Below, piece after piece: positions 3,684 through 54,047 of a DNA stretch of 64,000 nt. The DNA is from Oscillospiraceae bacterium (GTDB taxonomy: Bacteria; Bacillota; Clostridia; Oscillospirales; Ruminococcaceae). Under the pieces are notes generated by a model, which was not told the DNA's origin, did not search any database, and saw nothing but the letters and a program-made list of their open reading frames with translations. The stretch spans positions 191,575-255,574 of the forward strand of contig JAJQGB010000016.1 in the NCBI GenBank assembly GCA_021200775.1, in the 5' to 3' direction. Position 1 is the first letter of the stretch. Each line of letters opens with the position of its first letter. Made by a program: the position numbers and the translations under genes.

Positions 3684-5096
3684 TCAGATAGTCTCTACTT
3701 TTATGAGATTCGTATTTCCCGAGCGACCATTGGTCATACCGCCGGTGACGACGATTTTGTCTCCACGCTGGAGGTTGAATACTTTGAGGGAAGTATTCTT
3801 TGCAGTGTAGAATAGAACGTCTGTCGACTCATAGGTGTCGCACATGTAGGGAGTGACGCCCCATGAAAGTGCGAGCTTATAGCAGGTCTTGACGTTGGTG
3901 GTAAGTCCCAGGATGTCGACAGGGCATCTGAATCTCGATACCATTCTTACAGTCGAACCGGAAAGCGAGCAAACCGCAATCGCCTTTGCATTGACGTCAA
4001 CCGCCATTCCGCAGGTAGCATGTGAGATAGCGTCGACAGTGTTCTGAATCTTGAACTCAGCTGTTCTGAAAAGCTTGGTATAGTCGATGCTCTTTTCGGT
4101 AGTTTCGGCAATCTTCGCCATAGTCTGAAGCGCCAGAACCGGGTACTTGCCCGCAGCTGTTTCGCCGGAGAGCATGATAGCACTTGTGCCGTCATAAACG
4201 GCGTTCGCAACGTCCGAGGTCTCAGCTCTTGTCGGGCGGGGATTATGAATCATCGATTCGAGCATTTCGGTAGCGGTTATAACACGCTTTCCGAGGAGTC
4301 TGCACTTTGTGATAAGCTGTTTCTGGATAGCGGGGAGCTTCTCAAAGGCAATCTCAACGCCCATGTCGCCTCTGCCAATCATGATTCCGTCGGCAACCTC
4401 GCATATCTCTTCGATGTTGTCGATGCCAGCCTGATTTTCAATCTTCGCGATCAGGTCGATATCTTTGCCGCCGTTGGCGTCCAGAAGCGTCTTTATGTCA
4501 ATCATATCCTGCTTGCAGGAAACGAACGAGCAGGCGACAAAGTCAACGCCGTTTTCGATTCCGAAGAGTAAATCGGACTTGTCCTGTTCGCTGAGATACT
4601 CCTGTTTTAAAAGCTTTGTCGGGAAGCTCATCGACTTGTTGTTCGAGAGCTCGCCGCCCTCATTTACAACCGTATAGACATTCATGTCGTCAACTGAGGT
4701 AACGGTGAATTTGAGGAGTCCGTTATTGAGAAGGATTATGTCGCCTTCTTCGAGGTCATGAGCAAGACCCTTGTAGTATACGGTGACTCTTTCCTGATTT
4801 CCGACAACGTCTTCTGTGGTGAAGGTGAACTTGTCGCCCTCATTGAGAGTAATCTTACCGTTCTCGAATGAGCGGATTCTGTATTCAGGACCTTTCGTGT
4901 CGAGCATGATTGCAACTGGCAGGTCGAGTTCTGAACGAAGCTTCTTGATAAGGTTTATCTTTTCAAGATGGTCTTCGTGAGTTCCGTGGGAGAAGTTGAG
5001 CCGGGCTACATTCATTCCCGAGAGCATCATTTCCCGAAGGGTGGCTTCATCACTGCAAGCAGGACCAATGGTACAGATGATTTTTGTCTTTCTCAT
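3684..5096 (-). CDS. pyk: pyruvate kinase
   Basis: MRKTKIICTIGPACS..., NVARLNFSHG, MIGRGDMGVEI and VITATEMLESM motifs. I prefer the start at 5096 (RBS GAGGAA) over the track start at 5150. Confidence 0.9.
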   Translation of the reverse strand: MRKTKIICTIGPACSDEATLREMMLSGMNVARLNFSHGTHEDHLEKINLIKKLRSELDLPVAIMLDTKGPEYRIRSFENGKITLNEGDKFTFTTEDVVGNQERVTVYYKGLAHDLEEGDIILLNNGLLKFTVTSVDDMNVYTVVNEGGELSNNKSMSFPTKLLKQEYLSEQDKSDLLFGIENGVDFVACSFVSCKQDMIDIKTLLDANGGKDIDLIAKIENQAGIDNIEEICEVADGIMIGRGDMGVEIAFEKLPAIQKQLITKCRLLGKRVITATEMLESMIHNPRPTRAETSDVANAVYDGTSAIMLSGETAAGKYPVLALQTMAKIAETTEKSIDYTKLFRTAEFKIQNTVDAISHATCGMAVDVNAKAIAVCSLSGSTVRMVSRFRCPVDILGLTTNVKTCYKLALSWGVTPYMCDTYESTDVLFYTAKNTSLKVFNLQRGDKIVVTGGMTNGRSGNTNLIKVETI

Positions 5097-5189
5097 AGTG
5101 GATTCCTCTGATTTATCTTGTAGTAATTGTTGAGAGTAGTAAGCCGTCAAGAGTCTTGAAAGCTTGTTATTCCCGGCAAACTGAAGTAT

Positions 5190-5220
5190 GCTACCCGCAC
5201 GGGGTCACCATGCGGGTAGC
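5190..5220 (-). terminator. terminator-like hairpin after the isomerase gene
   Basis: 10-bp stem GCTACCCGCA / TGCGGGTAGC. The downstream U-tract on the minus strand is weak. Confidence 0.4.
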
Positions 5221-5231
5221 GGAGTTTTAAA

Positions 5232-6716
5232 TCAGGCAAAAGGATTCTCAGTCGGATAGGGAAGAGAAGCAGGCTGATTGTAGGCAATGTCTTCAATGCC
5301 GAGATACTTCATAACCTCGAACATGAGCTTGCCACAATGGCTGAACGCAACCGCACCGTGGTGAGGATATCTCTTCTGGATGAGAACGTGGCGATAGAAT
5401 CTGCCCATCTCGGGAATTCCGAATACTGCGATACCGCCGAACGAACGGGTAGCAACAGGAAGAATCTCGCCCTCAGCGATGTAGGCGTGGAGCTTTCCGT
5501 CGCTGTCGCACTGGAGTCTGTAGAAGGTGATGTCAGAAGGAGCGATGTCGCCTTCGAGAGTTCCTCTGGTGAAGTCGGGGTCGCTTCCCTGAGGTTCGAG
5601 AAGTCTGTGCTGGATGAGCTGATACTTGACAGCTCTGTCGTCGCACATCTTGCAGGAAGGAGTGTTGCCGCAGTGGAAGCCCATGAATGTATCAGTGAGC
5701 TTGTAGCCGAGGTCGGCAATCTTGTCCTCATCATATATGTACTGAGGAACGCTGTTGTTGATGTCAAGAAGAGTAACGGTGTCGCCGGTCAGGCAGATTC
5801 CGATATACTCGGAGAGAGCGCCATAGATATCAACTTCGCAGGAAACAGGGATGCCTCTGGAGCAGAGACGGCTGTTTACATAGCAAGGCTCAAAGCCGAA
5901 CTGGCTCGGGAAAGCAGGCCAGCACTTGTCAGCGAATGCGACATACTGTCTTGAACCCTTGTGGTTCTCCGCCCAGTCAAGAAGAGTGAGCTCGAACTGA
6001 GCCATTCTCTCGCTCAAATCGGGATAGAACTTGCCTTCGCCCATTTCAGCTGCCATTTCAGCGCAGACACCGGGGATTCTCGGGTCGCCAGCGTGCTCCT
6101 TGTAGGAGACGAGAAGGTCGAGCTCGCTGTTCTCTTCAATCTCAACGCCAAGTTCATAAAGACCGTTGATAGGAGCGTTGCAAGCGAAGAAGTCCTGCGG
6201 ACGGGGACCGAAGGTGATAATCTTCAGGTTCTTCAAGCCTAAAATTACTCTTGCAATCGGAACGAACTCAGCAATCATCTTTGTGATGTCCTCAGCGGTT
6301 CCGACAGGATACTCAGGGATGTAGCCCTTCAGCTTGCGAAGACCGAGATTATAAGAGCAGTTGAGCATACCGCAATAAGCGTCGCCTCTGCCGTTAATCA
6401 TGTCTCCGTCGCCTTCAGCGGCTGCAACGAACATGCAAGGACCGTCGAAGTTCTTTGCAATAAGGGTTTCGGGAGTCTCAGGACCGAAGTTACCGAGGAA
6501 TACAACCAAAGCGTTGCATCCAGCCGCCTTGACGTCACTGACAGCTTTAAGCATATCGAGCTCGTTCTCGACAGTTACAGGGCACTCATAGAGATCCTGA
6601 CCCTTAGCCTTGCACTCAGCGGCAATTGCGGTGCGTCTCTTCTCAGAAAGCTGAATCGGGAAGCAGTCACGGGAAACGGCAACAATACCGAGCTTTACAA
6701 CAGGAATGTTTATCAT
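5232..6716 (-). CDS. L-fucose/L-arabinose isomerase family protein (COG2407-like)
   Basis: About 494 aa from MINIPVVKLGIVAVSRDCFP..., with ...ITFGPRPQDFFACN... and FMGFHCGN. I prefer the start at 6716, behind RBS GGAGGT. Confidence 0.6.
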   Translation of the reverse strand: MINIPVVKLGIVAVSRDCFPIQLSEKRRTAIAAECKAKGQDLYECPVTVENELDMLKAVSDVKAAGCNALVVFLGNFGPETPETLIAKNFDGPCMFVAAAEGDGDMINGRGDAYCGMLNCSYNLGLRKLKGYIPEYPVGTAEDITKMIAEFVPIARVILGLKNLKIITFGPRPQDFFACNAPINGLYELGVEIEENSELDLLVSYKEHAGDPRIPGVCAEMAAEMGEGKFYPDLSERMAQFELTLLDWAENHKGSRQYVAFADKCWPAFPSQFGFEPCYVNSRLCSRGIPVSCEVDIYGALSEYIGICLTGDTVTLLDINNSVPQYIYDEDKIADLGYKLTDTFMGFHCGNTPSCKMCDDRAVKYQLIQHRLLEPQGSDPDFTRGTLEGDIAPSDITFYRLQCDSDGKLHAYIAEGEILPVATRSFGGIAVFGIPEMGRFYRHVLIQKRYPHHGAVAFSHCGKLMFEVMKYLGIEDIAYNQPASLPYPTENPFA

Positions 6717-6962: not shown

Positions 6963-7232
6963 ATGGAACTTGCAAAGATAACTTCCAAAGGACAGATAAC
7001 CATCCCGATAGAAATCCGCCGTTTTCTGGGCGTCAAAGACGGTGATAAAGTCATGTTCATTCAGGACGGCAACAGGGTAGTAATGATGAACGCCTCCCTC
7101 AACGCTCTGATGGATCTTCAGTCCGCCTTCACCGGCGTTGCTGAAGAGCAAAGCATCAAGGATGAACAGGACGTCGTGGACATGGTGAAAGAAATCCGCA
7201 AGGAGAAGAGCGGGGAATACACATGCGAGTAA
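6963..7232 (+). CDS. AbrB/SpoVT-family antitoxin
   Basis: MELAKITSKGQITIPIEIRRFLGVKDGDKVMF, a swapped-hairpin AbrB motif. RBS AAAGGAGG. It overlaps the PIN gene by 10 nt. Confidence 0.8.
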   Translation: MELAKITSKGQITIPIEIRRFLGVKDGDKVMFIQDGNRVVMMNASLNALMDLQSAFTGVAEEQSIKDEQDVVDMVKEIRKEKSGEYTCE

Positions 7233-7621
7233 TGTTCGACACCAATATCCTGATATCTATGGCACTTTTTCCGTCGGAGAGATTCAATTTGCTTCTGGAC
7301 TCTGTTACAAGGGAGCATACCCTTGTTATCCCATCTTTTGTGATTGAGGAACTGGAAGTTGTAACTGACAGGAAATTTCCGACTAAAAAGAGCGCTGTCG
7401 ATAAGTTTTTGTCTCAACTGAATTTTGAGTTTTCTTACACCCCGCACATCATGAAAAGCGGTTTGTTTGAAATCAGGGATATGAACGATTACCCTGTTCT
7501 CTACTCGGCAATTATCGAGGATGTCGACGTGCTAGTTACCGGCGATAAGGATTTATTGACGGTGGAAATCGAAAAGCCGGAAATACTGACAGCGGCAGAG
7601 TTTGTTTCGAGCTATATCTAA
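7223..7621 (+). CDS. PIN-domain toxin (putative ribonuclease)
   Basis: MRVMFDTNILIS..., DYPVLYSAI and LVTGDKDLL match the acidic-residue pattern of PIN domains. Confidence 0.8.
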   Translation: MRVMFDTNILISMALFPSERFNLLLDSVTREHTLVIPSFVIEELEVVTDRKFPTKKSAVDKFLSQLNFEFSYTPHIMKSGLFEIRDMNDYPVLYSAIIEDVDVLVTGDKDLLTVEIEKPEILTAAEFVSSYI

Positions 7622-7642
7622 AAAATCTTCTCAAATCCGCCG

Positions 7643-7671
7643 TTGACAATTTCCCATCCAAGTGCTATAAT
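7643..7671 (+). promoter_or_regulatory. promoter of the tRNA pair
   Basis: TTGACA (7643-7648), 17 nt, TATAAT (7666-7671). Confidence 0.65.
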
Positions 7672-7697
7672 AATTCCCACGGGCAAGAGTAGGGAAT

Positions 7698-7780
7698 GCA
7701 CCTGTGGTGGAATTGGCAGACACGATAGATTTAGGTTCTATTGCTTTTGCGTGCAGGTTCAAGTCCTGTCAGGTGCACCA
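7698..7780 (+). tRNA. tRNA-Leu (anticodon TAG), CCA encoded
   Basis: Acceptor stem GCACCTG/CAGGTGC, anticodon loop TTTAGGT, long variable arm, T-arm AGGTTCAAGTCCT, 3' ACCA. Confidence 0.9.
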
Positions 7781-7797
7781 TTTCTCCCCGTAATAAT

Positions 7798-7871
7798 GCA
7801 GATGTAGTTCAGTGGCAGAACATCAGCTTCCCAAGCTGAATATGCGGGTTCGATTCCCGTCATCTGCTCCA
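7798..7871 (+). tRNA. tRNA-Gly (anticodon CCC), CCA encoded
   Basis: Acceptor stem GCAGATG/CATCTGC, anticodon loop TTCCCAA, T-arm CGGGTTCGATTCCCG, 3' TCCA. Confidence 0.9.
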
Positions 7872-7878
7872 AAAAAGC

Positions 7879-7908
7879 GTCCCAGCCATAAGGCTGGGAC
7901 TGTTTTTG
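7879..7908 (+). terminator. intrinsic terminator after the tRNAs
   Basis: 9-bp stem GTCCCAGCC / GGCTGGGAC, loop ATAA, then TGTTTTT. Confidence 0.8.
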
Positions 7909-8004
7909 TCGCTATGAGGGTTGTGATTTAGGCTCCCCTACGCTTAGGGGAGTTGGCGCCGAAGGCGACTGAGAGGTGTGCGACCAACGGGAGCGCATTC
8001 GCCG

Positions 8005-34025: not shown

Positions 34026-34799
34026 ATGAAAAATTATTTTGATTTGACCGGCAACGTAGCTGTCGTCACCGGTTGCTCTACCGGACTTGGTGTCCAGATG
34101 GCAAAGGCTCTTGCCAATCAGGGATGCAAAATCGTCGTTCTGGCTCGCCGTCAGAATCTTATCGACGAAGTTGCCGCTGAAATCACCAAGGATTACGGCG
34201 TAGAGACCCTCGCAGTCGCTTGCGACATCACCAATACCGACCAGGTAAAGGCTGCTGTAAAGGCGGCAATGGACAAGTTCGGACGCATCGACATCCTTAT
34301 CAACAATGCCGGCACCGGCGGAGTTGCTCCTGCTGAGGACATCACCGACGAAGTTCTCTTGAACGAAGTCAACATTGACCTCGTTGGTACCTTCAAGATG
34401 GCTCGTGAAGTTGCCAAGAACGCTATGATTCCTGCTGGATATGGCAGAATCATCAACATTGCTTCCATGTACGGTCTCGTAGGAAACAAGATTGCTCCTG
34501 CGGCTCCTTATCATGCGGCAAAGGGCGGTGTTGTTAATCTTACCAGAGCTCTCGCTTGCGAGTGGGGCGACAAGGGCATCACTGTCAACACCATCTGCCC
34601 CGGCTACTTCGAGACTCCTCTTACCAAGGAGACTCTCCAGAGCGAATTCTTCCAGAACTATGCTCACACCATGATTCCTGAAGCTCGCTATGGTCAGGAT
34701 GGCGAGCTCGACACCGCCGCAATCTTCTTCGCATCTCCCGCTTCCAGCTATGTCAACGGCGCAGTTCTTCCCGTTGATGGCGGCTACACTTCTCTTTAA
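34026..34799 (+). CDS. SDR family oxidoreductase (gluconate 5-dehydrogenase/KduD-like)
   Basis: VAVVTGCSTGLG, NNAG, and the SMYG...YHAAKGG catalytic Y-x3-K motif. 257 aa. Confidence 0.85.
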   Translation: MKNYFDLTGNVAVVTGCSTGLGVQMAKALANQGCKIVVLARRQNLIDEVAAEITKDYGVETLAVACDITNTDQVKAAVKAAMDKFGRIDILINNAGTGGVAPAEDITDEVLLNEVNIDLVGTFKMAREVAKNAMIPAGYGRIINIASMYGLVGNKIAPAAPYHAAKGGVVNLTRALACEWGDKGITVNTICPGYFETPLTKETLQSEFFQNYAHTMIPEARYGQDGELDTAAIFFASPASSYVNGAVLPVDGGYTSL

Positions 34800-34814
34800 T
34801 CTCCGGATTTATTT

Positions 34815-34846
34815 CCCCCGTAGAGAAATCTGCGGGGGATTTTTTT
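34815..34846 (+). terminator. intrinsic terminator
   Basis: Stem CCCCCG / CGGGGG, then ATTTTTTT. Confidence 0.7.
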
Positions 34847-34855
34847 ATGAACCTA

Positions 34856-41011: not shown

Positions 41012-42522
41012 CTAAGAGACTGAGAAAAATAGTAATTCTGCTTGTGGTTCTGGTTGTCCTCTGTGTGGCGACGGTTCTCGTGTCCTTCTATAACGAAAAG
41101 CAGGAGCAGATTCAGAACTCGAATGAGATAATCTTGTCTATCTCCACTGATAGCGTTTCTTCTGTATCCTGGGAAGTTGATGACACGGCTCTCGGCTTCA
41201 CTCTCAACTCCGAGACCGGTTCCTGGCTCTATGACGACGATTCCGGCTTCCCAACGAGCACTTCGGAAATCGAGAATCTCTTAAGCATCTTTGAAGAGTA
41301 CGAAGCCGACTTCATCATCGAAGAGGTTGACGACTACTCACAGTATGGTCTCGACGACCCAGTTATGACTATAAACATAACTCTTGACGACGAGACTTCT
41401 TACGAAATCACTCTCGGCAACTTCTCGACCCTTGACAGCGAGCGCTACGTCTCCATCGGCGACGGAAACGTCTATCTCGCAGTTGTCGACCCGTACGATA
41501 CCTACGACGTTGAGCTCAGCGACATGATTGAGGACGACACAATCGGCTCATTCTCCGAAGCTGTTGAACTCACCTTCACCGGCGTCGAGAACTACTCAAT
41601 TTACTTTGAAGCGGACAGCACAAACACCTACTGCTCGGACGACACCTATTTCGTTTCGGACAGCGACCTGCCGCTTGATACTGATAACATCGAGACATAT
41701 CTCGGCTATATCCGTAACACAGGTCTCAGCGATTATGTCACCTATAACGCTTCGGAGGACGAGCTCGAGCTCTACGGCATGAACAATCCTGTCCTCACGA
41801 TAACAGTTGATTATCCCGTCACCGAAACGGATGACGACGGCGAGGAGGTCACCACCACCGAGACTCTTACTCTCACGATAGGTGTCAATCAGGACGAACT
41901 CGCCGAAGCTCAGGAAGAGCTTGAAGATTCGGAAGACGAAGATGCGGAAGTCGACATTTCGAGTCTTAGCCTCTATGTTCGGGTAAACGACTCCCAGATT
42001 ATCTATGAGCTGGCAACGAACAGATACAACTATCTCATCGCTTGCTCCTATGACGATTTCCGCCACGCCGAAGTCCTGACAGCTGACTATTCGAGCATCT
42101 ATCAGCTCGACTTTACCATCGAGGACGTCACCTACACCATCTATTCGGAGCTCAGTGACCCCGACGACGAAGAGTCCGACAGAGTTTACTATTACTACTA
42201 CGACGGCGAAGTCATCGACGCCGACAGCTTGGCTGAGGACGACGACATTTCGAACTACCGAGTTGAAGTCGACATCGACGACATCGAGTCCGCAATCGAC
42301 GCAGTAACCGCCGAGAGCTACACCGGTGAGGAAGCCGACGGCAAGCTTGAAGTCAGCCTCACTGCCTATCTCGACAACGAGAACTACCCCGAAGTCACGG
42401 TCGAGCTCTACCGCTATGACGGCACCTACTGCCTTGCAGTGATAAATGGCGAACCAACTTCACTAGTAACCCGTTCGTCGGTAGTAGATTTGATTGAGAC
42501 CATCAATTCGATAGTACTCTGA
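41008..42522 (+). CDS. DUF4340-like membrane-anchored acidic protein
   Basis: N-terminal TM segment (IVILLVVLVVLCVATVLVSF) and a very acidic external domain. This is the usual fourth gene of GldA/F/G-like operons. Confidence 0.6.
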   Translation: MTKRLRKIVILLVVLVVLCVATVLVSFYNEKQEQIQNSNEIILSISTDSVSSVSWEVDDTALGFTLNSETGSWLYDDDSGFPTSTSEIENLLSIFEEYEADFIIEEVDDYSQYGLDDPVMTINITLDDETSYEITLGNFSTLDSERYVSIGDGNVYLAVVDPYDTYDVELSDMIEDDTIGSFSEAVELTFTGVENYSIYFEADSTNTYCSDDTYFVSDSDLPLDTDNIETYLGYIRNTGLSDYVTYNASEDELELYGMNNPVLTITVDYPVTETDDDGEEVTTTETLTLTIGVNQDELAEAQEELEDSEDEDAEVDISSLSLYVRVNDSQIIYELATNRYNYLIACSYDDFRHAEVLTADYSSIYQLDFTIEDVTYTIYSELSDPDDEESDRVYYYYYDGEVIDADSLAEDDDISNYRVEVDIDDIESAIDAVTAESYTGEEADGKLEVSLTAYLDNENYPEVTVELYRYDGTYCLAVINGEPTSLVTRSSVVDLIETINSIVL

Positions 42523-42532
42523 TAGCAAAACC

Positions 42533-42563
42533 CACCTGCGGGATTTCCTGCGGGTGTTTTTTT
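42533..42563 (+). terminator. intrinsic terminator
   Basis: Stem CACCTGCGG / CTGCGGGTG (with G-U pairs), then TTTTTTT. Confidence 0.7.
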
Positions 42564-42600
42564 ATCCCCAACATAATTTTAAAATCCGAGTAGAAAGGTC

Positions 42601-42629
42601 TTGACAACCGCAAAATAGTATGCTACAAT
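42601..42629 (+). promoter_or_regulatory. promoter of the beta-helix protein operon (leader copy 1)
   Basis: TTGACA (42601-42606), 17 nt, TACAAT (42624-42629). The 10-mer CTTGACAACC is shared with the promoter at 49615-49624. Confidence 0.65.
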
Positions 42630-42635
42630 TTCAAC

Positions 42636-42796
42636 ATAAGGTGAGCATTATGTGAAATGTTCAATCTACGTAATTTGTGTGGGGGGGTAACACCTTCTGT
42701 GTGCCCAATTTTCGACCTCCAACACTAACTAATAGTGCTTTGGAGGAGTTTTATATTTGTATTTTGTCCTCCTTGGCGTCAAGGAGGTATTTTTTT
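42636..42796 (+). promoter_or_regulatory. structured 5' leader, copy 1 (G-run, TGCCCA box, two CCUCC/GGAGG hairpins; SD sequestered)
   Basis: Hairpin 1 at 42716-42746, then a U-tract. Hairpin 2 at 42768-42787 (CCTCCTTG/CAAGGAGG), then TATTTTTTT and the ATG. Homologous to 49651-49835. Confidence 0.6.
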
Positions 42797-45274
42797 ATGG
42801 TAAAAAGGCTTTTGTGCGTTATAATCAGCGTCTTGATTTCAGTTGTTCTTCTAACAATCAGTGCAATAGCTGATGATAATACAGAAGAAACCGCTTCGCC
42901 GGTTGCTTCTATTGGTGGAGATGAATATGGTACTCTTGAAGAAGCCATAACAGCTGCAAGTGCAGCTTCAAGTGATGTAACAATAACCCTGCTTTCCGAT
43001 GTAGAACTAGACACCTCCCTCACCATCCCTGCCTCCACATACACCATAACCTTGGACTTAAACGGCTGCACTATAAGCCAGTCGGAAGATTTTGCTGATG
43101 ATAAGATTATATATGTGCTTGGTATTCTTACTATAATGGACGGAAAAGAAAATGGAAGAATAGTTGCGGATAATCAATACGGCATTATGGTTAGTGGCAG
43201 TAGTGCCGTATTAAATATCAACTCCGGAACAATTGTCGCGACAAATCGGGGAGTACACATAGGCGCACAAGGTGTTTTAAATATATCTGGAGGAACAATC
43301 ACATCTTCGTGGATAGGCGTGCTCGTTTATAATGGAACACTAAATATCTCCGGCGATAACACGGTGATTGGTTCAGTAGAAAATACAACATATGGAGTAT
43401 ATTTAGATCAATCTGGATGTTCAGAAAAAGTAAATATAACTGGAGGACATGTAAGTGGGAAGTCTTATGGCATATACATAAGGTCTAATCCTCATGCAAG
43501 TGTAACCATATCAGGCGGATATATAGTCGGCAAAAATTATAGTGCTGTTAACATATATCAATATGGCAGTATTTCCGTTGATGGTGGCTATTTTAGCTCA
43601 GATGTTACAGAGTTTTGTACTTCCGGATATGCTTGTGAAGAGCTTTCAGAAGAAGTAAACAGTTGCTCTTATCAGGTAGTAGAAGCAACAAGCGAAAATG
43701 CAGTTTTATCTGTAACTTCTTCTACGAACGGAGAAATTACTTACCATAGTACACTCGCAATTGCTGTTTCATCGGCATCTGAGGGAGACACCATAACTAT
43801 TCTGAAAGATACCACTGTAAGTGAAACGGTTACAGTAGATAAGTCGCTTGAAATTGATCTTTACGGGCACACTATCAGTGGTAGCGTTAGCGGTAGAACT
43901 ACGGCGATGTTGTATGTTTCCGGTAGTGATGTAAGTCTGACAATCAGTGATAGCTCTGAAGAGCAGACGGGGTGTATAACAAATACATATACGTCAATTA
44001 GTTATGCAATTTTAGTTGCGAATTATGCTTCTTTGACTGTTAAGGGTGGAACAACTTCTGGTTATCGAGCTTTGAGACTGGCTACATATGCTTCGGCGAC
44101 TGTCGAGGGAGGGACACTAGAAGGAACTAATAACGGTGCTGTTTATATGGAAGTAAGCAATGGTCTTGTAATTACCGGTGGAACAATAACAAGCGCAAAT
44201 AGTTGGGGAATATTTCAATCTTCCAGTTCATCAGTTACAGTATCAGGTGGCACAGTTTATGGTAAGACATATGGGATTCAACAGACCTCAGCTAATATAT
44301 CTCAAAGGGTAACATTAAATGGGGGAGAAGTTTCAGGCGGAACATGTGCTTTGAAAATAACCAAGTATTTGACTGTTCCGGAGGATTCGACGGTTATAGT
44401 TACTGGTGATTCGGTTTTGGAATTAGATCTTACTTATTCTTCATATAGCAATATAGCTATCGCCGGTGGTTACTTCTCAAGTGCATTGGAAGAAGATTGG
44501 TGTGCTGAGGGGTATATTCCTACAGAAGTGATTACTGAGGGGGATTATGCGGGGTACTATTCTGCTATGAAAGGCATTTACCTTGGCATCAGCAGTGATA
44601 CTGAAAGTACAATCAAGATTCCTGCTACTATAGAGTATGGCGAAGATGAAGCTATTATGTATGTGCTGGTTTCCGGCGATTATATCGGCACTGACGGATA
44701 TTATTCTAAAGAAGCTTATCCCGTAACATCTGCAACGTATGCGGAAGCTGGGCACCTAGAAGCGGGGTACTTGTTTGCCGGTTGGTATTCGCTTTCTGAG
44801 GATGGCATTAGCTATAAGGCTTTGACAGAATTCCCGACGGGAACTGATGCATATGCCAAGTTTGTAGATGCAAATGTCCTGACAACCGGAGCACAGATTT
44901 CTGCTGGTACAGAGTCTACTTATGAGACAACTGATATGCGCTTTGTAAGCACGGTAGATGTTCTTGATTATTCGCTGGTCGGATTCAATATAACAATTGG
45001 CGAAGTAACAGTAACCGTAAAAACAAATACCGTTTATAGCAGTATTGTTGGTACAGATGGTGAGACGGAGTATGTCTATGAACCGCAGAGCTTCTGCAGT
45101 GCTTCAAACTATTTTGATGTTTATACACTAATGGAAATTCCCGCATCAGTATTTGATAGTGATATTACAGCCGAAGCTTATTGGGTGACCTTAGATGGTA
45201 CTACCGTTTATGGAGAAAGCAATACTTTCGTTATCAGCAGTATGATTTCCGAGAGTGGTTCTGAGAGTGAATAG
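42797..45274 (+). CDS. secreted parallel beta-helix repeat protein with a C-terminal InlB-B/Flg_new-type repeat
   Basis: Signal peptide MVKRLLCVIISVLISVVLLTISAIA. Repeated GGTITS/GGHVSG/GGYIVG/GGYFSS turns. GYLFAGWY motif. Start at 42797, behind AAGGAGG. Confidence 0.7.
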   Translation: MVKRLLCVIISVLISVVLLTISAIADDNTEETASPVASIGGDEYGTLEEAITAASAASSDVTITLLSDVELDTSLTIPASTYTITLDLNGCTISQSEDFADDKIIYVLGILTIMDGKENGRIVADNQYGIMVSGSSAVLNINSGTIVATNRGVHIGAQGVLNISGGTITSSWIGVLVYNGTLNISGDNTVIGSVENTTYGVYLDQSGCSEKVNITGGHVSGKSYGIYIRSNPHASVTISGGYIVGKNYSAVNIYQYGSISVDGGYFSSDVTEFCTSGYACEELSEEVNSCSYQVVEATSENAVLSVTSSTNGEITYHSTLAIAVSSASEGDTITILKDTTVSETVTVDKSLEIDLYGHTISGSVSGRTTAMLYVSGSDVSLTISDSSEEQTGCITNTYTSISYAILVANYASLTVKGGTTSGYRALRLATYASATVEGGTLEGTNNGAVYMEVSNGLVITGGTITSANSWGIFQSSSSSVTVSGGTVYGKTYGIQQTSANISQRVTLNGGEVSGGTCALKITKYLTVPEDSTVIVTGDSVLELDLTYSSYSNIAIAGGYFSSALEEDWCAEGYIPTEVITEGDYAGYYSAMKGIYLGISSDTESTIKIPATIEYGEDEAIMYVLVSGDYIGTDGYYSKEAYPVTSATYAEAGHLEAGYLFAGWYSLSEDGISYKALTEFPTGTDAYAKFVDANVLTTGAQISAGTESTYETTDMRFVSTVDVLDYSLVGFNITIGEVTVTVKTNTVYSSIVGTDGETEYVYEPQSFCSASNYFDVYTLMEIPASVFDSDITAEAYWVTLDGTTVYGESNTFVISSMISESGSESE

Positions 45275-45316: not shown

Positions 45317-45454
45317 ATGGAATACGAGAAAGCAGAGATGGAGATAGTTATCTTTGAATTTAATGATGTTGTAGTGCTGAGTAATGGAGGAAGTTACAAT
45401 TTAGACGACGATAGTGGAACTGGAAGAGGAACATTTGGGGAGCTTTTCAAGTGA
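45317..45454 (+). CDS. 45-aa acidic small peptide (MEYEKAEMEIVIFEFNDVVVLSNGGSYNLDDDSGTGRGTFGELFK)
   Basis: RBS GGAAGGAG lies 8 nt upstream. It is below the ORF-track cut-off. The next ATG follows its stop by 2 nt. Confidence 0.55.
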   Translation: MEYEKAEMEIVIFEFNDVVVLSNGGSYNLDDDSGTGRGTFGELFK

Positions 45455-45456
45455 AT

Positions 45457-46056
45457 ATGAAAAGTAAAGACATTAAAAAAACAGTTATTGCAGTATTGTG
45501 CATAGCGTCGCTGATTTTGCTTTGTTGTGTTGCAGTGATGGTTGTAAGGACAGGAAAGCAATCAAATGAGATTATCACTGAGGCGGAGGCGACTGCTAAT
45601 GCCATTGAGGCTGAACCAGCGGTGACAACTGTAACCGAGATGTCGGATGAGATAATTATCACAGAAACGTCGACCACAGTCACGGAATATTCTTCTGTCG
45701 AGACCGCTGTGGAAACGACAACATTGGAATCTGCCGAGATAACAACAATTACGACTACTGTAGCTAAGGATGAAGAAAATCCGGTAACGGTATGTAATGT
45801 CGATGACGAAGATGTTATAGAGCTGGATGATGAGGATAGTGTCGACCTTGAGGACGAAGAGATACTTCCTGAGACAACGGCTACTACAAGTCAATCGACG
45901 ATTCAATCATCAACATCAGTGTTGTGGTATACGGAAATTGTGACATCATCAGATTCAATAACTGATGGCACAGCTATAACTGAAGAATCCAAAGACAATG
46001 AGTTGTCAGTTGCTACCGAGTTGACAGATAACGCTGTCTGGGGACCGCTGTTTTAG
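45457..46056 (+). CDS. membrane-anchored Thr/Glu-rich low-complexity protein
   Basis: N-terminal TM segment (VIAVLCIASLILLCCVAVMVV), followed by T/E/S-rich sequence. Confidence 0.6.
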   Translation: MKSKDIKKTVIAVLCIASLILLCCVAVMVVRTGKQSNEIITEAEATANAIEAEPAVTTVTEMSDEIIITETSTTVTEYSSVETAVETTTLESAEITTITTTVAKDEENPVTVCNVDDEDVIELDDEDSVDLEDEEILPETTATTSQSTIQSSTSVLWYTEIVTSSDSITDGTAITEESKDNELSVATELTDNAVWGPLF

Positions 46057-48436: not shown

Positions 48437-49075
48437 TTATGGCTGAGACAATTTTTCGGGGTCGAGTATTTCAACGCCGTTCCGGTCCTTTCGGATGACT
48501 CCCGCTTCTTCAAGCTTCGTGAGCTCCCGATAGAGTGAAGCTCTCCCGATTCCGAGCCTTCCGGCAATTTCGGAGAAGTTGCAACCCGAAACCTGTCCTT
48601 TGTCGTCGGCATTTTTGAGAAGAAACCTCGCCAGCCGTTTTTCGCTGCTGATTTCACCAAGAGTGTCAACCTTCTCGGACAAGAACCGAATCCGGGCTGA
48701 AAGATACCGGATATAGTTCATCCTGATTCTATCGTCCCGATTGATAAGCGTGAGGATTGCTTCCTGGCTGAAATAGAGGACAGTAGCGGCAGTTTTCGCA
48801 GTCAGCGTGGAAGCATATTCCGGCTCGTTGTTGAAAAGAGCCGCCGCCCCGAAAAGATTTCCGGAAGTAAGTTCACTCACCGAAAGCCTGCCCTTGGTAA
48901 CGGCAATCTTTCCGGAAATAACCACTCCCAGCACCCTCTGAAACTTCTCCGGCGAAAAGATAATCTCGCCTTTTGGGTAGCATTTCTCCTCGCAGGAAAA
49001 CTCCCGGATAAACTCTAAGATTTCCTCCGCCTGAACTCCCTCAAAAAGAAAAGTCGACCCCAAAATCTCCGCCAT
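48437..49075 (-). CDS. Crp/Fnr family transcriptional regulator
   Basis: A cNMP-binding-like N-terminal half and the C-terminal HTH NFSEIAGRLGIGRASLYRELTKLEE. ATG at 49075 is preferred over TTG at 49093. Confidence 0.8.
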   Translation of the reverse strand: MAEILGSTFLFEGVQAEEILEFIREFSCEEKCYPKGEIIFSPEKFQRVLGVVISGKIAVTKGRLSVSELTSGNLFGAAALFNNEPEYASTLTAKTAATVLYFSQEAILTLINRDDRIRMNYIRYLSARIRFLSEKVDTLGEISSEKRLARFLLKNADDKGQVSGCNFSEIAGRLGIGRASLYRELTKLEEAGVIRKDRNGVEILDPEKLSQP

Positions 49076-49137
49076 CTTCTTTCCACCAGCCAAAAAATCA
49101 CCCCGTTTTTTGTCTCATTTGATACAATTACGGGATG

Positions 49138-49166
49138 ATTATAGCACAAATACTAGGTTGTGTCAA
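49138..49166 (-). promoter_or_regulatory. promoter of the Crp/Fnr-ABC importer operon
   Basis: Minus-strand TTGACA (49161-49166), 17 nt, TATAAT (49138-49143). Three tandem GATGGGTT-like 8-mers lie just upstream (49174-49197). Confidence 0.6.
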
Positions 49167-49615: not shown

Positions 49616-49644
49616 TTGACAACCCCCACAAAGCGTACTATAAT
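49616..49644 (+). promoter_or_regulatory. promoter of the peptide / Myb-like cassette (leader copy 2)
   Basis: TTGACA (49616-49621), 17 nt, TATAAT (49639-49644). Confidence 0.65.
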
Positions 49645-49650
49645 ATAGAC

Positions 49651-49835
49651 ATGTTGTGGAAGAGATGATAAAAACACGACCACAATATTCATTTCGGGGG
49701 GTAATGGTTCCTGCGGAAAATATTTCCGAAGAATCATCTGCCCATTCCAAACCTCCGGACACTATCAAACAAGTGCAACGGAGGATTTTTAATACCTGTT
49801 TTCCTCCAAAGCGCAAAACTAAGGAGGAATTTTTT
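49651..49835 (+). promoter_or_regulatory. structured 5' leader, copy 2
   Basis: GGGGGGTAA 49696-49704. TGCCCATTC 49739-49747. Hairpin 1 at 49752-49784 (CCTCCG..CACT/AGTG..CGGAGG), then ATTTTT. Hairpin 2 at 49801-49829 (TTCCTCC/GGAGGAA), then TTTTTT and the ATG. Confidence 0.6.
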
Positions 49836-49979
49836 ATGGATAAAGAAACGACTGGTGCATATGAAGAGCCTAGTTTTGAAATGATTGCTATGGATGATGA
49901 TGTTTATATCATATGTAGTATTAGCGACGCAGCTGGTGGTGGTGAGGTAGGTGGCGGCGGACTTATATATGACGACTGA
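49836..49979 (+). CDS. 47-aa acidic Gly-rich small peptide (MDKETTGAYEEPSFEMIAMDDDVYIICSISDAAGGGEVGGGGLIYDD)
   Basis: RBS AAGGAGGAA lies 7 nt upstream. The long track ORF 49656-49979 is the same frame read through the leader. Confidence 0.55.
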   Translation: MDKETTGAYEEPSFEMIAMDDDVYIICSISDAAGGGEVGGGGLIYDD

Positions 49980-50233
49980 TGAGAAGAATAGCCCCCGAGA
50001 TAAAAGCCGAGCACGTTCGACACCGGAAGAAGATTGATCGCAAGCGGTACTATGGCAAGACGGCAAACAAGTATCCGAAGCGTGCCTGGACTGACGAAGA
50101 AATCCGGCTGGTTCTCGACCACTCCATCCCCGACAGCGAGCTATCAGAGAAAATCGGTCGCTCCCTGAAAGGCATCCAGGAAAAACGCCGACGGCTGAAA
50201 AAAGCAGAAGAAAACAAACAACAAGAAGCCTGA
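49979..50233 (+). CDS. 84-aa basic protein with a Myb/SANT-like helix-turn-helix
   Basis: AWTDEEIRLVLDHSIPDSELSEKIGRSLKGIQEKRRRL resembles a single Myb/SANT repeat. The ATG overlaps the peptide stop (TGATG). Confidence 0.55.
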   Translation: MRRIAPEIKAEHVRHRKKIDRKRYYGKTANKYPKRAWTDEEIRLVLDHSIPDSELSEKIGRSLKGIQEKRRRLKKAEENKQQEA

Positions 50234-50253
50234 GCTAAGTCTCGGGCTTTTTT
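50225..50253 (+). terminator. intrinsic terminator
   Basis: Stem AGCCTGAG / CTCGGGCT, then TTTTT. It overlaps the stop codon. Confidence 0.75.
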
Positions 50254-50271
50254 GCATCGAAGGAAGCGGCG

Positions 50272-50332: not shown

Positions 50333-50433
50333 TCCCAAAAAACTTTCAGTTAGCCTCTGTTTCCGCTTGTATTTTTTTAAAAACCGTGTTATAATATTTG
50401 TCGAAATGTTTGTATGAAAGGAAGCGTGATAGC

Positions 50434-52269
50434 TTGTCTAGACTTGCACTGATGACTGAAAGCCGGGCTGAGACGGTTGTCGAGGGTATTTACAAGGATA
50501 TGGAGCGGCGGATTGCCGCAAGTTCTTCGGATGTTTGCCCTGTCGACCTGACTCTGGCTTTTCTTAGAATGTGTCATGCCCAGACCTGTGGCAAGTGCGT
50601 ACCATGCAGAGTGGGACTTGCACAGCTGGGTAATTTATTGGAGGACGTCCTTGATGGAAGAGGAGACGACTCCACCCTGTCAAAGATTGAAAAACTTGCG
50701 CACGTCATCGCCGAATCGGCTGACTGTGCAATAGGATTTGAGGCGGCAAAGATGGTCTTGAAGGGACTCGACGGTTTCCGTGAGGACTACATATCCCATA
50801 TTGAGAAGCATCACTGCTTCGCCGGAACTCCGATGAGTATTCCTTGCGTAGGCAACTGCCCCGCAGGCGTCGACATCCCCGGCTATATCGCTCTCGTTGG
50901 CGAGGGAAGATATGCCGATGCCGTCAAACTCATCAGGAAGGACAACCCGTTCCCGACCGCTTGTGCTCTTATCTGTGAGCATCCCTGTGAAACAAGATGT
51001 AGAAGGACTCTTCTCGATGCACCCGTCAATATCCGTGGCTTGAAGAGAGCGGCTGTTGAAGGAGCAGGAGTTGTCCCCGCACCCGAATGTGCTCCGTCCA
51101 CAGGAAAGCGTGTTGCAATCGTCGGCGGCGGACCTTCCGGACTTTCATGTGCTTATTATTTACAGCTTATGGGACACCAGTGCACCGTTTTCGAGGCACA
51201 CTCGAAGCTCGGCGGAATGTTAATCTATGGCATCCCTGCATACAGACTTCCCCGTGAGAGACTCCAGAGTGATATCGATTGCATTCTCTCAACCGGCGTT
51301 GAGGTCAAGCTTAACACGAAAATCGGCGAGGGCGAATACACAATGGAAAAGCTCCGCGAGGAGTATGACGCCGTTTATATCGCAATCGGCGCTCACACCG
51401 ACAAGAAGGTCGGAATCGAGGGCGAGGACGCCGAGGGCGTCTGGTCTGCGGTTTCCTTCCTGGGCGGAATCGGCGACGGAAATATCCCAAATCTCACCGG
51501 CAAGAAGGTTTGCGTAATCGGTGGCGGAAATGTCGCTATGGACTGCACACGTTCCGCAATCAGATGTGGTGCTGAAAGCGTTTCAATCGTCTATCGCCGC
51601 CGTAAGGAGGACATGACAGCTCTTCCTGAAGAGGTTGACGGTGCAATCGCTGAGGGTGCAATCATGGTTGACCTTCATGCACCTTTGAAGATAGAAACCG
51701 ACGAAAACGGCAAGGTTGCGGCTCTCTGGGCTACTCCCTATATGCCCGGTCTTATAAAGAACGGAAGAATGAATCCGTCTCCATCCGGTCTTGAAGACAA
51801 GAGAATCCCTTGCGACGTAGTACTCGTTGCAATCGGACAGGGAATCGACTTCTACAAGCTCGAATCCTCCGGAATCCCGGTTGTAAGAGGCGTCATTAAG
51901 GGCGACGACTGGACAGAAGTCGAGAATGCTCCCGGCGTATTCGCCGGAGGCGACTGCGTAACCGGACCGAAGACTGCGATAAGAGCTATCGCCGCCGGAA
52001 AGGTTGCCGCCGCAAATATCGACTACTACTTAGGCTACAACCATACAATCACCACCGATGTCGAAATTCCCGACCCGAATCTCACCGACCGTCCGTACTG
52101 CGGAAGAATCAACATGTCCGAACGTGAACCGGGCGAGCGCAGAAACGACTTCGAGCTGATGGAAATCAAGATGACCGAAAAGGAATCCTGCCAGGAAGCA
52201 TCAAGATGCCTCCGTTGCGACCACTTCGGTTGCGGAATATTTAAGGGAGGGAGAAAGAAACAGTGGTAA
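50434..52269 (+). CDS. NAD(P)H-dependent oxidoreductase, GltD (glutamate synthase small subunit)-like with an N-terminal NuoF-type Fe-S domain; hydrogenase partner
   Basis: CGKCVPCRVG; Cys clusters CVGNCPAG and CEHPCETRC; IVGGGPSGLSCAYYL and VIGGGNVAMDC Rossmann motifs. TTG start at 50434 (RBS AAGGAAG) is preferred over 50398, which lies 2 nt after the putative -10 box. Confidence 0.8.
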   Translation: MSRLALMTESRAETVVEGIYKDMERRIAASSSDVCPVDLTLAFLRMCHAQTCGKCVPCRVGLAQLGNLLEDVLDGRGDDSTLSKIEKLAHVIAESADCAIGFEAAKMVLKGLDGFREDYISHIEKHHCFAGTPMSIPCVGNCPAGVDIPGYIALVGEGRYADAVKLIRKDNPFPTACALICEHPCETRCRRTLLDAPVNIRGLKRAAVEGAGVVPAPECAPSTGKRVAIVGGGPSGLSCAYYLQLMGHQCTVFEAHSKLGGMLIYGIPAYRLPRERLQSDIDCILSTGVEVKLNTKIGEGEYTMEKLREEYDAVYIAIGAHTDKKVGIEGEDAEGVWSAVSFLGGIGDGNIPNLTGKKVCVIGGGNVAMDCTRSAIRCGAESVSIVYRRRKEDMTALPEEVDGAIAEGAIMVDLHAPLKIETDENGKVAALWATPYMPGLIKNGRMNPSPSGLEDKRIPCDVVLVAIGQGIDFYKLESSGIPVVRGVIKGDDWTEVENAPGVFAGGDCVTGPKTAIRAIAAGKVAAANIDYYLGYNHTITTDVEIPDPNLTDRPYCGRINMSEREPGERRNDFELMEIKMTEKESCQEASRCLRCDHFGCGIFKGGRKKQW

Positions 52270-54047
52270 ACGTAATTATTAACAACACCCCCGTTCAGGT
52301 TGAAGAGGGAACGTCAATACTCGATGCCGCAAAGAAAATCGGCATAAATATCCCGACTCTTTGCTTCCTCAAAGGCATCAACGAAATCGGTGCCTGCCGT
52401 GCCTGCATAGTTGAGGTTGAGGGAATCGACCGCCTTGTCATTGCATGCGACAACGTGTGTAGCGAGGGCATGGTAATCCATACAGATACAACAAGAGTTC
52501 GTGAAGCAAGAAAAACCAACATCGAGCTTCTTTTAAGCCAGCACAGAGTCAACTGTCCGTCCTGTTTCCGTAACGGCACCTGCCAGCTCCAGAACATCGC
52601 TTCAACTCTCAGAATCAGCGACACATTAAGCTTTAAGACCGAATATCCCGCAGACAAGTGGAACGACAAGCTCCCCATCATCCGTGATGAGAGCAAGTGC
52701 ATCAAGTGCTATCGTTGCGTCTCCGTCTGCCAGAAGGTTCAGTCGTTAGGAATCTGGGACATGGTCGGAACCGGCGCCCACACAACCGTCGGCGTTTCCA
52801 ACCACCGCAGTCTCGAAGAAGCAGATTGCGCATTCTGCGGTCAGTGCATCACTCACTGCCCGACAAACGCACTTCACACCCGTGACGACACGGAAGCCAT
52901 TATCGGCGTAAACGGCGTAATGGACGACAAGGACAAGATTACCGTTGTTCAGGTTGCACCTGCTGTAAGAGCCGCATGGGGCGAAGAGTTCGGACTTTCT
53001 CCCGAAGTCGCCACCGAAAAGCGTCTTGCCGCGGCATTGCGACGTGTCGGATTTGACTATGTCTTCGACACCAACTTCTCTGCCGACCTCACCATCATGG
53101 AGGAGGGAACCGAGTTCTTAGAGAGAATCAAGCACCCGGAGGGCAAGAAGTTCCCGATGTTCACATCCTGCTGTCCTGGTTGGGTTCGGTTCTTAAAGAG
53201 CCAGTACCCCGACATGGTCGACCAGCTTTCAACCGCAAAATCTCCCCAGCAGATGTTCGGCGCAGTCACCAAGTCCTACTTCGCAGAGAAGCTTGGCGTT
53301 GCCCCCGAGAACATCGTCTGCGTCTCGATTATGCCTTGCACAGCAAAGAAGGCGGAGCTCGACATTCCGAGCATCAACGATGCCGCAGATGGTTGCAAGG
53401 ACGTCGACTTCTCACTCACTACCCGTGAGATGTGCCGCATGATAAAGGCAGACCAGATTGATGTTGCGGCTCTTCCTGAGGAAGATTTCGATTCGCCTTT
53501 GGGAACTGGCACCGGTGCCGCAGTCATCTTCGGAACCACCGGAGGAGTTATGGAAGCGGCTCTGAGAACCTGCTACTATATCCTCACAGGCGAGAACCCG
53601 AATGCCGACGAAACCTTCAAGGCGGTTCGTGCTCTCGGAAGCGACAAGCCCTGGACAGAGGCTGAATATAACGTAGGCGGAATCACTGTCAAGGCGGCGG
53701 TCGTAAATGGCTTAGGAAATGCCAGAAGACTTATCCGTGCAATCAGACGTGGCGAGGTTGAATACCAGTTCGTCGAAGTCATGGCTTGCCCGGGTGGATG
53801 CGTCGGAGGCGGCGGACAGCCGATTCACTATAACGAAGAGCGTGCTACTGAGCGTGGAAAGGTCCTCTATAACTACGACAGTGCCAACACTCTTAGATTC
53901 TCCCACGAGAACCCCGAAATCAAGGCAATCTACAAGGATTACCTCGGCGAGCCCTGCGGAGAAAAGTCGCACCACCTTCTTCACACCGACCACCACGCTT
54001 GGGATATGCCCGAAGCCTCGGTCTATGACGAAGACGTTGTTCACTAA
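52263..54047 (+). CDS. [FeFe] hydrogenase, group A (2Fe-2S + 4Fe-4S N-terminal domains + H-cluster domain)
   Basis: H-cluster motifs FTSCCPGWV, MPCTAKKAE and VMACPGGCVGGGGQP. Ferredoxin-type CIKCYRCVSVC and CAFCGQCITHCP. The GTG start overlaps the upstream stop. Confidence 0.9.
   Translation: MVNVIINNTPVQVEEGTSILDAAKKIGINIPTLCFLKGINEIGACRACIVEVEGIDRLVIACDNVCSEGMVIHTDTTRVREARKTNIELLLSQHRVNCPSCFRNGTCQLQNIASTLRISDTLSFKTEYPADKWNDKLPIIRDESKCIKCYRCVSVCQKVQSLGIWDMVGTGAHTTVGVSNHRSLEEADCAFCGQCITHCPTNALHTRDDTEAIIGVNGVMDDKDKITVVQVAPAVRAAWGEEFGLSPEVATEKRLAAALRRVGFDYVFDTNFSADLTIMEEGTEFLERIKHPEGKKFPMFTSCCPGWVRFLKSQYPDMVDQLSTAKSPQQMFGAVTKSYFAEKLGVAPENIVCVSIMPCTAKKAELDIPSINDAADGCKDVDFSLTTREMCRMIKADQIDVAALPEEDFDSPLGTGTGAAVIFGTTGGVMEAALRTCYYILTGENPNADETFKAVRALGSDKPWTEAEYNVGGITVKAAVVNGLGNARRLIRAIRRGEVEYQFVEVMACPGGCVGGGGQPIHYNEERATERGKVLYNYDSANTLRFSHENPEIKAIYKDYLGEPCGEKSHHLLHTDHHAWDMPEASVYDEDVVH

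Follow-up and report, generated by a model that had tools for sequence, protein, structure and literature searches.

The DNA analysed here (the window) is a stretch of 64,000 nucleotides (nt) from contig JAJQGB010000016.1 (assembly GCA_021200775.1) of an Oscillospiraceae bacterium. At two places in it a promoter is followed by a long untranslated leader composed of alternating CCUCC and GGAGG words, and this promoter-plus-leader module is the subject of the analysis. Copy 1 precedes the gene of a secreted beta-helix protein, copy 2 a short operon which begins with a small peptide gene (Table 1). A first-pass annotation, made from the sequence alone, had described copy 1 as an unclassified structured leader and had noticed copy 2. 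All parts that it listed for copy 1 (promoter, G7 run, boxes, both hairpins, Shine-Dalgarno (SD) sequence, U7 tract and ATG) were located as described, and the whole module, promoter included, does recur at copy 2. The analysis showed that the module is a real, clade-restricted and previously unclassified leader of attenuator-like architecture.

Copy 1 is an independent transcription unit. The ABC-transporter accessory operon lying upstream of it is closed by a clean terminator (42533-42564). A match to the Rfam family NsiR1 at 42512-42564 is merely this terminator. Transcription of copy 1 is predicted to start at approximately 42636.

Seven copies in one clade

Copies 1 and 2 are 77% identical in a pairwise alignment, the identity being confined to discrete blocks. 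The same module was found upstream of a beta-helix homologue in the metagenome-assembled genome (MAG) U.11_4, whose protein is only about 29% identical to that encoded downstream of copy 1. When 185,579 species genomes were scanned with an exact pattern, 17 matches were obtained. Genuine ones occurred only in the Oscillospiraceae MAGs U.11_4, MI.11_1 and U.4_5; another match (L008) proved to be an ordinary terminator. A covariance model was then built on four homologues, with copy 1 left out. This model recovered copy 1 (53.3 bits, E about 1e-10) and identified a second copy in U.4_5 (L040, 125 bits) as well as a copy in a fifth genome, LUE20 (L042, 79 bits). A third match of the model in the 64 kb (34693-34852, 18 bits) consisted of the end of a coding sequence and a terminator, and was discarded as a false positive. 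Together, the homologue, the pattern scan and the model added five copies, all in Oscillospiraceae MAGs (four related ones), so that the set comprises seven distinct sequences from five genomes. The compensatory changes among them, which the first-pass annotation had proposed to look for, are few (see below). The genome of the window and U.4_5 carry two copies each within the small part of the genome that was inspected. Scanning of JGI metagenomes with an independent pattern yielded 13 matches, all due to chance, and the only match in IMG/VR was not confirmed by the covariance model. Judged by these sequence searches, the leader family is real and limited to one narrow clade.

The motif does not accompany the small-peptide family (described below) outside the clade, since the leaders of two distant peptide homologues (L038 and L039) are short and unrelated. 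Next to the U.4_5 copy an operon with the same gene pattern (547-residue protein, 54-residue peptide, 187-residue protein) is preceded by a short leader of ordinary type that lacks the motif (L040, 2370-2470); the leader is therefore not obligatory for such operons.

The module could not be assigned to a known RNA family, as the first-pass annotation had anticipated. Rfam 15 (4227 models) was scanned both at gathering thresholds and by E-value. At gathering thresholds the whole window gave only two tRNAs and no match for the leader, and scans by E-value of the two window copies and of the LUE20 copy gave sub-threshold noise only (E >= 0.59). The two tRNA genes, which are adjacent (7698-7868), are the sole matches of the window at the curated thresholds. 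The PyrR binding site (RF00515) scored 17.8 bits (E = 4.9) against a gathering threshold of 54, in an alignment resting on the terminator-like hairpin P3 only. The T-box model gave no match even at E <= 10 in the three leaders, and the hairpin at their 5' end (P0) is a hairpin of 7-9 base pairs (bp), not a Stem I.

Table 1. Positions in the window of the parts of the two module copies and of the genes behind them
Feature	Position	Strand	Remarks
Copy 1, whole module	42601-42799	+	
Copy 1 promoter	42601-42629	+	TTGACA 42601-42606, 17-nt spacer, TACAAT 42624-42629, TG-extended; 11/12 consensus matches
Copy 1 P0 hairpin	42642-42663	+	adjoins the predicted 5' end
Copy 1 G7 run	42681-42687	+	followed by TAA
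Copy 1 P1	42685-42706	+	GGGUA 42685-42689 with UGCCC 42702-42706; 12-nt insert between
Copy 1 box TGCCCAATT	42702-42710		TGCCCA = 42702-42707
Copy 1 P1-P2 junction AAUUUUCGA	42707-42715	+	A-N-N-Y-CAAA in the other six copies
Copy 1 P2 (hairpin 1)	42716-42746	+	CCUCCAA-CACU / AGUG-CU-UUGGAGG; -13.1 kcal/mol; then U4 42749-42752
Copy 1 P3 (hairpin 2)	42768-42787	+	CCUCCUUG / CAAGGAGG, 8 bp, loop GCGT; -12.8 kcal/mol
Copy 1 SD, GGAGG within P3	42783-42787		U7 42790-42796; ATG 42797
Copy 1 operon, gene 1: 825-residue secreted NosD-like beta-helix protein	42797-45274	+	
45-residue YE-motif peptide	45317-45454		after the 825-residue gene
201-residue membrane protein	45451-46056		after the 45-residue peptide gene
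Copy 2, whole module	49616-49838	+	TTGACA 49616 to ATG 49836
Copy 2 promoter	49616-49644	+	TTGACA, 17-nt spacer, TATAAT; 12/12 matches; A/T-rich UP-like tract upstream
Copy 2 P0 hairpin	49653-49688	+	AUGUUGUGG...CCACAAUAU; adjoins the predicted 5' end
Copy 2 G6 run and P1	49696-49743	+	G6 49696-49701; GGGUA 49699-49703 with UGCCC 49739-49743
Copy 2 P2	49752-49790	+	CCUCCG..CACU / AGUG..CGGAGG 49752-49784, -13.5 kcal/mol; U5 49786-49790
Copy 2 P3	49801-49835	+	UUCCUCC / GGAGGAA; SD 49823-49827; U6 49830-49835
Copy 2 operon, gene 1: 47-residue YE-motif peptide	49836-49979	+	
84-residue basic helix-turn-helix protein	49979-50233	+	overlaps the 47-residue peptide gene; terminator near 50236-50258

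The leader is approximately 160-230 nt long and untranslated, and it is always accompanied by the promoter. In all seven copies an A/T-rich tract is followed by an invariant TTGACAACC, a spacer of 17 or 18 nt and TAYAAT. The spacer (ACCCCCA) and the upstream A/T tracts are unusually conserved. The P0 hairpin adjoins the predicted 5' end in every copy, although in copy 1 its sequence is unlike the UUGUGG...CCACAA hairpin of the other six. A run of six to eight Gs (6, 6, 6, 7, 7, 7 and 8 in the individual copies) begins 50-52 nt past the -10 hexamer in all seven, and its length differs by one between the nearly identical leaders win_c2 and U4_5a. The distance between -10 hexamer and G-run is fixed although the intervening sequence of copy 1 (42630-42680; compare 49645-49695 in copy 2) is unrelated to that of the others.

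The G-run and the TGCCCA box, listed separately in the first-pass annotation, turned out to pair with each other, forming one helix, P1 (GGGUA:UGCCC). Its base is paired in 100% of the seven sequences, with one change from U.G to U-A. The insert between the two strands measures 12-65 nt and resists alignment, yet in six of the seven copies it forms one or more hairpins of its own. Compared with shuffled sequences the fold of the insert had z-scores from -2.2 to -4.2 in four copies (-2.9 for the self-folding 35-nt insert of copy 2) and only -0.7 in U4_5b; the 12-nt insert of copy 1 allows only 3 bp within P1. That these unalignable inserts still fold points to a function at the level of RNA rather than DNA.

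P1 and P2 are separated by a junction of 8-9 nt, which has the form A-N-N-Y-CAAA in six of the seven copies. P2 has in all seven the form CCUCC(N)..CACU-loop-AGUG..(N)GGAGG (-12 to -13.5 kcal/mol) and is followed by U4-5. After a linker of 18-33 nt comes P3, UUCCUCC...GGAGGAA, a stem of 7-9 bp (-9.2 to -13.5 kcal/mol) whose 3' arm is the SD sequence, then U6-7 and the AUG, again in 7/7. The spacing between SD and AUG is 8-9 nt. The alternating order of G-run, CCUCC, GGAGG, CCUCC and SD, which had been noticed in copy 1, is therefore conserved in all seven copies and five genomes.

Conservation follows these elements. Mean pairwise identity is 91% in the G-run, 84% in P2, 82% in P3 and 81% in the 3' strand of P1 with the junction. 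It amounts to 47% in the P1 insert, which is the random level, and to about 60% in the first 240 nt of coding sequence. In these alignments the conserved blocks of the leader sit within saturated sequence.

Predicted folds and the Shine-Dalgarno site

When folded in silico, the leaders were more stable than dinucleotide shuffles (z-scores -2.3 to -4.9), which answers the shuffling check suggested in the first-pass annotation. The combination of P1, P2 and P3 is the minimum-free-energy structure in 7/7 copies, and of all pairing cells (22 pairs, seven sequences) 99.3% are paired. Relative to the other copies, P2 of copy 1 carries a compensatory change from G-C to A-U.

The burial of the SD sequence had been claimed for copy 1 and proved to be general and far deeper than in other genes of the window. 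In segments from -100 to +30 relative to the start codon, the probability of the GGAGG being unpaired was <=0.001 in all seven leaders (0.001 in copy 1, about 0 in copy 2). For comparison, 25 of the window's other genes, all having an SD-like site, gave a median of 0.24 and a minimum of 0.014. A CCTCC within 55 nt upstream of the start occurred in only one of 43 control genes. P3 of copy 1 was also flagged as a terminator-like site by a terminator scan; it looks like an SD sequestrator and, in the model, resembles an intrinsic terminator. The elements of such a terminator, a GC-rich stem and a U-run, are predicted at P3 in 7/7 copies.

The first-pass annotation had further suggested that the same words can re-pair so as to leave the SD free. 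Such a refolding, with the 3' arm of P2 transferred to the 5' arm of P3, is sterically possible in all seven copies; its energetic cost is considered below. In the refolded state the spare Gs lying 5' of P1 extend this helix by pairing with the CCUCC of P2. In copy 1 the last three Gs of the G7 run belong to P1 and the first four are available for this purpose. A feature not seen at first is that the semi-conserved GYR in the loop of P3 is complementary to the invariant UGC on the inner side of the 3' arm of P2, which makes the anti-sequestrator helix longer than the CCUCC/GGAGG words alone would. The 17 pairs of the alternative state are 99.2% compatible across the seven sequences, with changes that preserve pairing by wobble only. 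For example, the change of GGAGG to GGGGG in L040 (A to G) maintains both P2 (as U.G) and the alternative helix (as G.U).

The order in which the elements emerge was examined by folding prefixes of the leader. Before the 3' arm of P2 exists, the CCUCC of P2 is paired with the G-run in 5/7 copies. In prefixes ending just before the SD the alternative helix differs from P2 by -2.1 to +0.8 kcal/mol in 6/7 copies. Such near-isoenergetic prefixes are what would be predicted for a kinetically controlled attenuator.

A proposed conditional switch and competing explanations

The reading we favour, with a probability of roughly 0.5, is that the module is a conditional switch: a cis-acting leader with mutually exclusive hairpins keeps a strong promoter in check. 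By its sequence the promoter is apparently very strong and constitutive. In the ground state, as modelled, P1, P2 and P3 would form and the SD would be locked in the P3 helix of 7-9 bp, so that the default is OFF; P3 would block initiation and probably terminate a part of the transcripts. In the alternative state the 3-5 spare Gs on the 5' side of P1 would pair with the CCUCC of the 5' arm of P2. The freed 3' arm of P2 (UGC..GGAGGA) could then pair with the 5' arm and loop of P3 (UCCUCC..GYR), so that the SD and the U-tract stay unpaired. Which state is adopted would be decided as the leader is transcribed: the helix between G-run and CCUCC can precede the 3' arm of P2, and polymerase may pause at the U4-5 tract behind P2. 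The ratio of the two states would be set by a factor stabilizing or destabilizing P1, the G-run, the junction or P2; candidates are a protein, a metabolite, the speed of RNA polymerase and the length of the G-run itself.

Several observations weigh against this reading. All copies belong to one narrow clade, so that common descent makes the conservation look stronger than it is. Because the stems hardly vary, formal covariation is weak: only two double changes were found in the 22 pairs (G-C to A-U in P2, U-A to G-U in P3), both in copy 1. Two wobble-type single changes complete the list, and 16 of 500 shuffles attained the observed score. The alternative helix shows one-sided, wobble-type changes only, for which the shuffle control cannot discriminate. 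Although the SD-free state can form sterically, it is 6.3-11.7 kcal/mol less stable at equilibrium and the helix between G-run and CCUCC is short (3-5 bp). In two of the seven copies the prefix folds prefer the purine tract of P0 as partner of the CCUCC, and in LUE20 the alternative is 4.8 kcal/mol worse even as a prefix. The proposed double role of P3 holds for SD sequestration, whereas a textbook terminator is present in copy 1 only; in the other six copies the loop measures 10-17 nt, which is atypical and makes the efficiency of termination uncertain, and overall the terminator scan performed no better than with shuffled sequences. The start of transcription is a predicted position only. 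Finally, the seven leaders do not reveal a conserved pocket, nor do they suggest a ligand.

The first-pass annotation had spoken of an attenuator or riboswitch expression platform. As to the platform, both folds fit 7/7 sequences in silico, one of them hiding the SD and the other exposing it. As to an aptamer, conservation extends to the base of P1 and to the junction, and the insert still folds while it varies; two double changes occur in 22 pairs of seven sequences. None of this demonstrates an aptamer that binds a ligand. Surface proteins and small peptides, the products encoded downstream, do not point to any obvious metabolite. The term attenuator-like expression platform is thus a fair description, whereas riboswitch would be a guess. 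A more far-reaching version of the switch would make the module a new class of ligand- or protein-responsive, or G-tract phase-variable, leader which, in uncultured Oscillospiraceae, coordinately switches a multi-copy family of operons for surface proteins and for peptides resembling ribosomally synthesized and post-translationally modified peptides (RiPPs). It would do so by a CCUCC/GGAGG cascade of five tiers, set off by a template-encoded poly-G in the role of a pyrG-like anti-terminator strand. This extended version is tentative, and we consider it rather unlikely to hold in full.

In its general logic the leader resembles terminator/antiterminator leaders and SD-sequestering riboswitch platforms, in which overlapping segments pair either as 1:2 and 3:4 or as 2:3. 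As in generic expression platforms, the last hairpin holds the SD and a U-tract, and the near-isoenergetic intermediate points to a co-transcriptional decision. It differs from them in that there is no recognizable aptamer, leader peptide or site for a binding protein and no Rfam match, that all of its five tiers consist of CCUCC/GGAGG words, and that the promoter travels with the leader. Relief of SD sequestration by re-pairing upstream is also known from translational attenuation of the erm/cat type, but the leader has no conserved short open reading frame with an SD of its own. The idea of a leader peptide was discarded, as the alignment of the seven leaders contains no conserved start codon; the AUG which follows the G-run in copy 2 is absent elsewhere. 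Similarly, a boxA element was not supported. The consensus GYTCTTTAANA is gamma-proteobacterial, and the double mutation C4T/T6C abolished association of SuhB (PMC5725501). The best P2 loop (U11_4, ACTATTTAACA) agrees with it in 9/11 positions and misses C4, the other loops score lower, and the gamma-proteobacterial consensus may not be that of the host.

The closest parallel for the G-run is the pyrG leader of Bacillus subtilis, where a poly-G captures the 5' arm, rich in pyrimidines, of a downstream hairpin, so that the terminator does not form (PMC7039003). The extra Gs of pyrG are not templated; they are added at the start of transcription when cytidine triphosphate is low (PMC7039003; Meng et al. 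2004 cited there). In the leader described here, too, a poly-G can pair with such an arm of a hairpin downstream of it, three counted pairs being compatible in 7/7 copies. It lacks the defining feature of pyrG: its six to eight Gs are encoded in the template, lie 50-52 nt past the -10 hexamer and are partly used in P1. With Gs that are templated and internal, the condition has to come from elsewhere. The possibility of a second promoter at the G-run was considered and dismissed: the sequence directly upstream has no -35 and, as -10-like elements, nothing better than weak A/T hexamers.

Among the alternatives the best survivor is a constitutive cassette for high expression and stability, whose promoter with UP-like tract, 5'-terminal hairpin and structured, SD-like elements would guard an abundant mRNA for surface proteins or precursor peptides from 5' decay and in which P3 would be a fixed translational damper. 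The perfect -35 and -10 hexamers with A/T tracts upstream, the hairpin at the predicted 5' end of all copies and the secreted proteins and small peptides encoded downstream are in keeping with this, as are the reuse of the module before unrelated genes and the stems being invariant and not covarying. Elements of the STAB-SD type and other 5' stabilizers (e.g. that of cryIIIA) have a long 5' untranslated region with an SD-like GGAGG far upstream and precede genes of highly expressed secreted proteins. The leader shares with them the long 5' untranslated region, the GGAGG far upstream of the real SD and the hairpin near the 5' end. Its upstream GGAGG is, however, paired in P2 and is GGGGG in one copy; ribosome binding there is therefore unlikely as a conserved feature. 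Full burial of the SD and U-tracts after both hairpins oppose high expression, and such a cassette leaves unexplained the invariant G-run with its fixed spacing, the complementarity between the GYR of the P3 loop and the UGC of P2, and the near-isoenergetic intermediate. We regard this explanation as fairly unlikely, though one to be reckoned with.

An improbable variant is a phase-variable attenuator, in which slippage in the G6-8 run would alter the strand competing for P2 and thereby shift subpopulations between ON and OFF. The different run lengths, including the one-G difference between win_c2 and U4_5a, would be accounted for, surface proteins are a typical target of phase variation, and pairing of a poly-G with a pyrimidine-rich terminator arm is proven antitermination in pyrG (PMC7039003). 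But runs of 6-8 Gs are short for slippage at a high rate, the same lengths were found in independent assemblies, and length differences between species can be ordinary indels.

It is also quite improbable that the module is primarily a small RNA gene of about 115-150 nt ending at P2 and its U-tract, from which the downstream genes would be transcribed by read-through. Its own strong promoter, the stability of P2 (-12 to -13.5 kcal/mol) with the U4-5 conserved after it in 7/7, and the location before unrelated genes would suit such a gene. The U-tract after P2 is, however, short and offset by 1-2 nt, and there are no accessible C-rich or seed-like loops. Moreover, P3, the SD and the AUG spacing are equally conserved and always abut a start codon, and no free-standing copy was found in the searches described above.

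Very unlikely, finally, are DNA-level operators for a transcription factor, such as the small helix-turn-helix (HTH) protein encoded at the operon ends or the divergent Crp/Fnr regulator (48437-49093): the conserved promoter spacer and A/T tracts, the position of the 84-residue HTH protein as the last gene in 6/7 leader-bearing operons and its confident three-helix structure model speak for them, but the arms stay paired while their spacing varies (12-65 nt in P1, 21-24 nt in P2), which fits hairpins and argues against dimer operators, U.G wobble changes keep pairing only in RNA, the HTH family is multi-copy and occurs without the leader in phage-like and recombinase contexts, and a factor acting on the promoter could coexist with an RNA mechanism.

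If the switch is real, it would be an uncatalogued regulatory RNA which, in each genome of an uncultured clade associated with the gut, gates several operons with strong promoters, whose products are surface proteins and small modified-peptide-like molecules. A logic made of repeated SD and anti-SD words and a hard-wired poly-G would be compact and easily mutated, and would suit studies of co-transcriptional folding and synthetic control. If the module is only a fixed cassette for stability or translational damping, it is still a clean promoter-plus-leader unit reused before unrelated genes.

Downstream genes and neighbours

The protein encoded directly behind copy 1 has a signal-peptide-like N-terminus and matches the NosD beta-helix family (PF05048, 1.8e-9), in agreement with the secreted beta-helix protein originally proposed. 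Small peptides occur in the operons of both copies (Table 1). They belong to a family of 39-49 residues with the N-terminal pattern M-x-(K)-YE-x-[PA]-x-[MF]-x-[IV]-[IV]-x-F and Gly/Asp-rich tails. Outside the window, members are encoded in L003 (6537-6677), L004 (4342-4482), L015 (546-668), L035 (4001-4120) and L036 (2902-3024). In related loci the peptide genes adjoin genes for ScmC/HprK-like and PqqD proteins and a PF14907 nucleotidyltransferase. Because the peptides co-occur there with an HprK-related, ScmC-like protein, PqqD and the nucleotidyltransferase, a RiPP-like system is suggested, and the YE-motif peptides look like an uncharacterized family of RiPP-like precursors.

A basic protein of 75-86 residues ends six of the seven leader-bearing operons. 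Its genes lie at 49979-50233 in the window and in L003 (7487-7714), L015 (1389-1646), L036 (3717-3944), L040 (9001-9255) and L042 (9001-9249). The structure model is a confident three-helix HTH with a predicted local distance difference test (pLDDT) score of 93. Searches with this protein gave no Pfam or NCBIfam match, no significant structural neighbour and only a weak Myb match. At least nine paralogues are present in the genome of the window. The gene also occurs, without the leader, in phage-like contigs (L043-L051) and beside three serine recombinases (L052). In L043-L051 a region of 1-2 kb without a called gene lies just upstream of it (about 4700-6670 and 7050-8000). The protein is a candidate regulator, for which the conserved promoter would be a likelier target than the RNA. 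A role as an RNA-binding antiterminator was set aside as speculative, the three-helix model being generic and DNA binding more likely.

Approximately 450 nt from the copy 2 promoter there is a perfect 12/12 consensus promoter with a TG extension on the minus strand (49138-49166), which faces the gene of the divergent Crp/Fnr-family regulator (48437-49093, minus strand). Directly downstream of the copy 2 operon lies a pair of genes for an NADPH-linked [FeFe]-hydrogenase (GltD/NuoF-like and HydA-like, 50398-54047). The pair is set apart from the operon by the terminator at about 50236-50258 and has a promoter-like site of its own near 50360-50395. The same order of copy 2 operon and hydrogenase genes was also found in L015 and L035.

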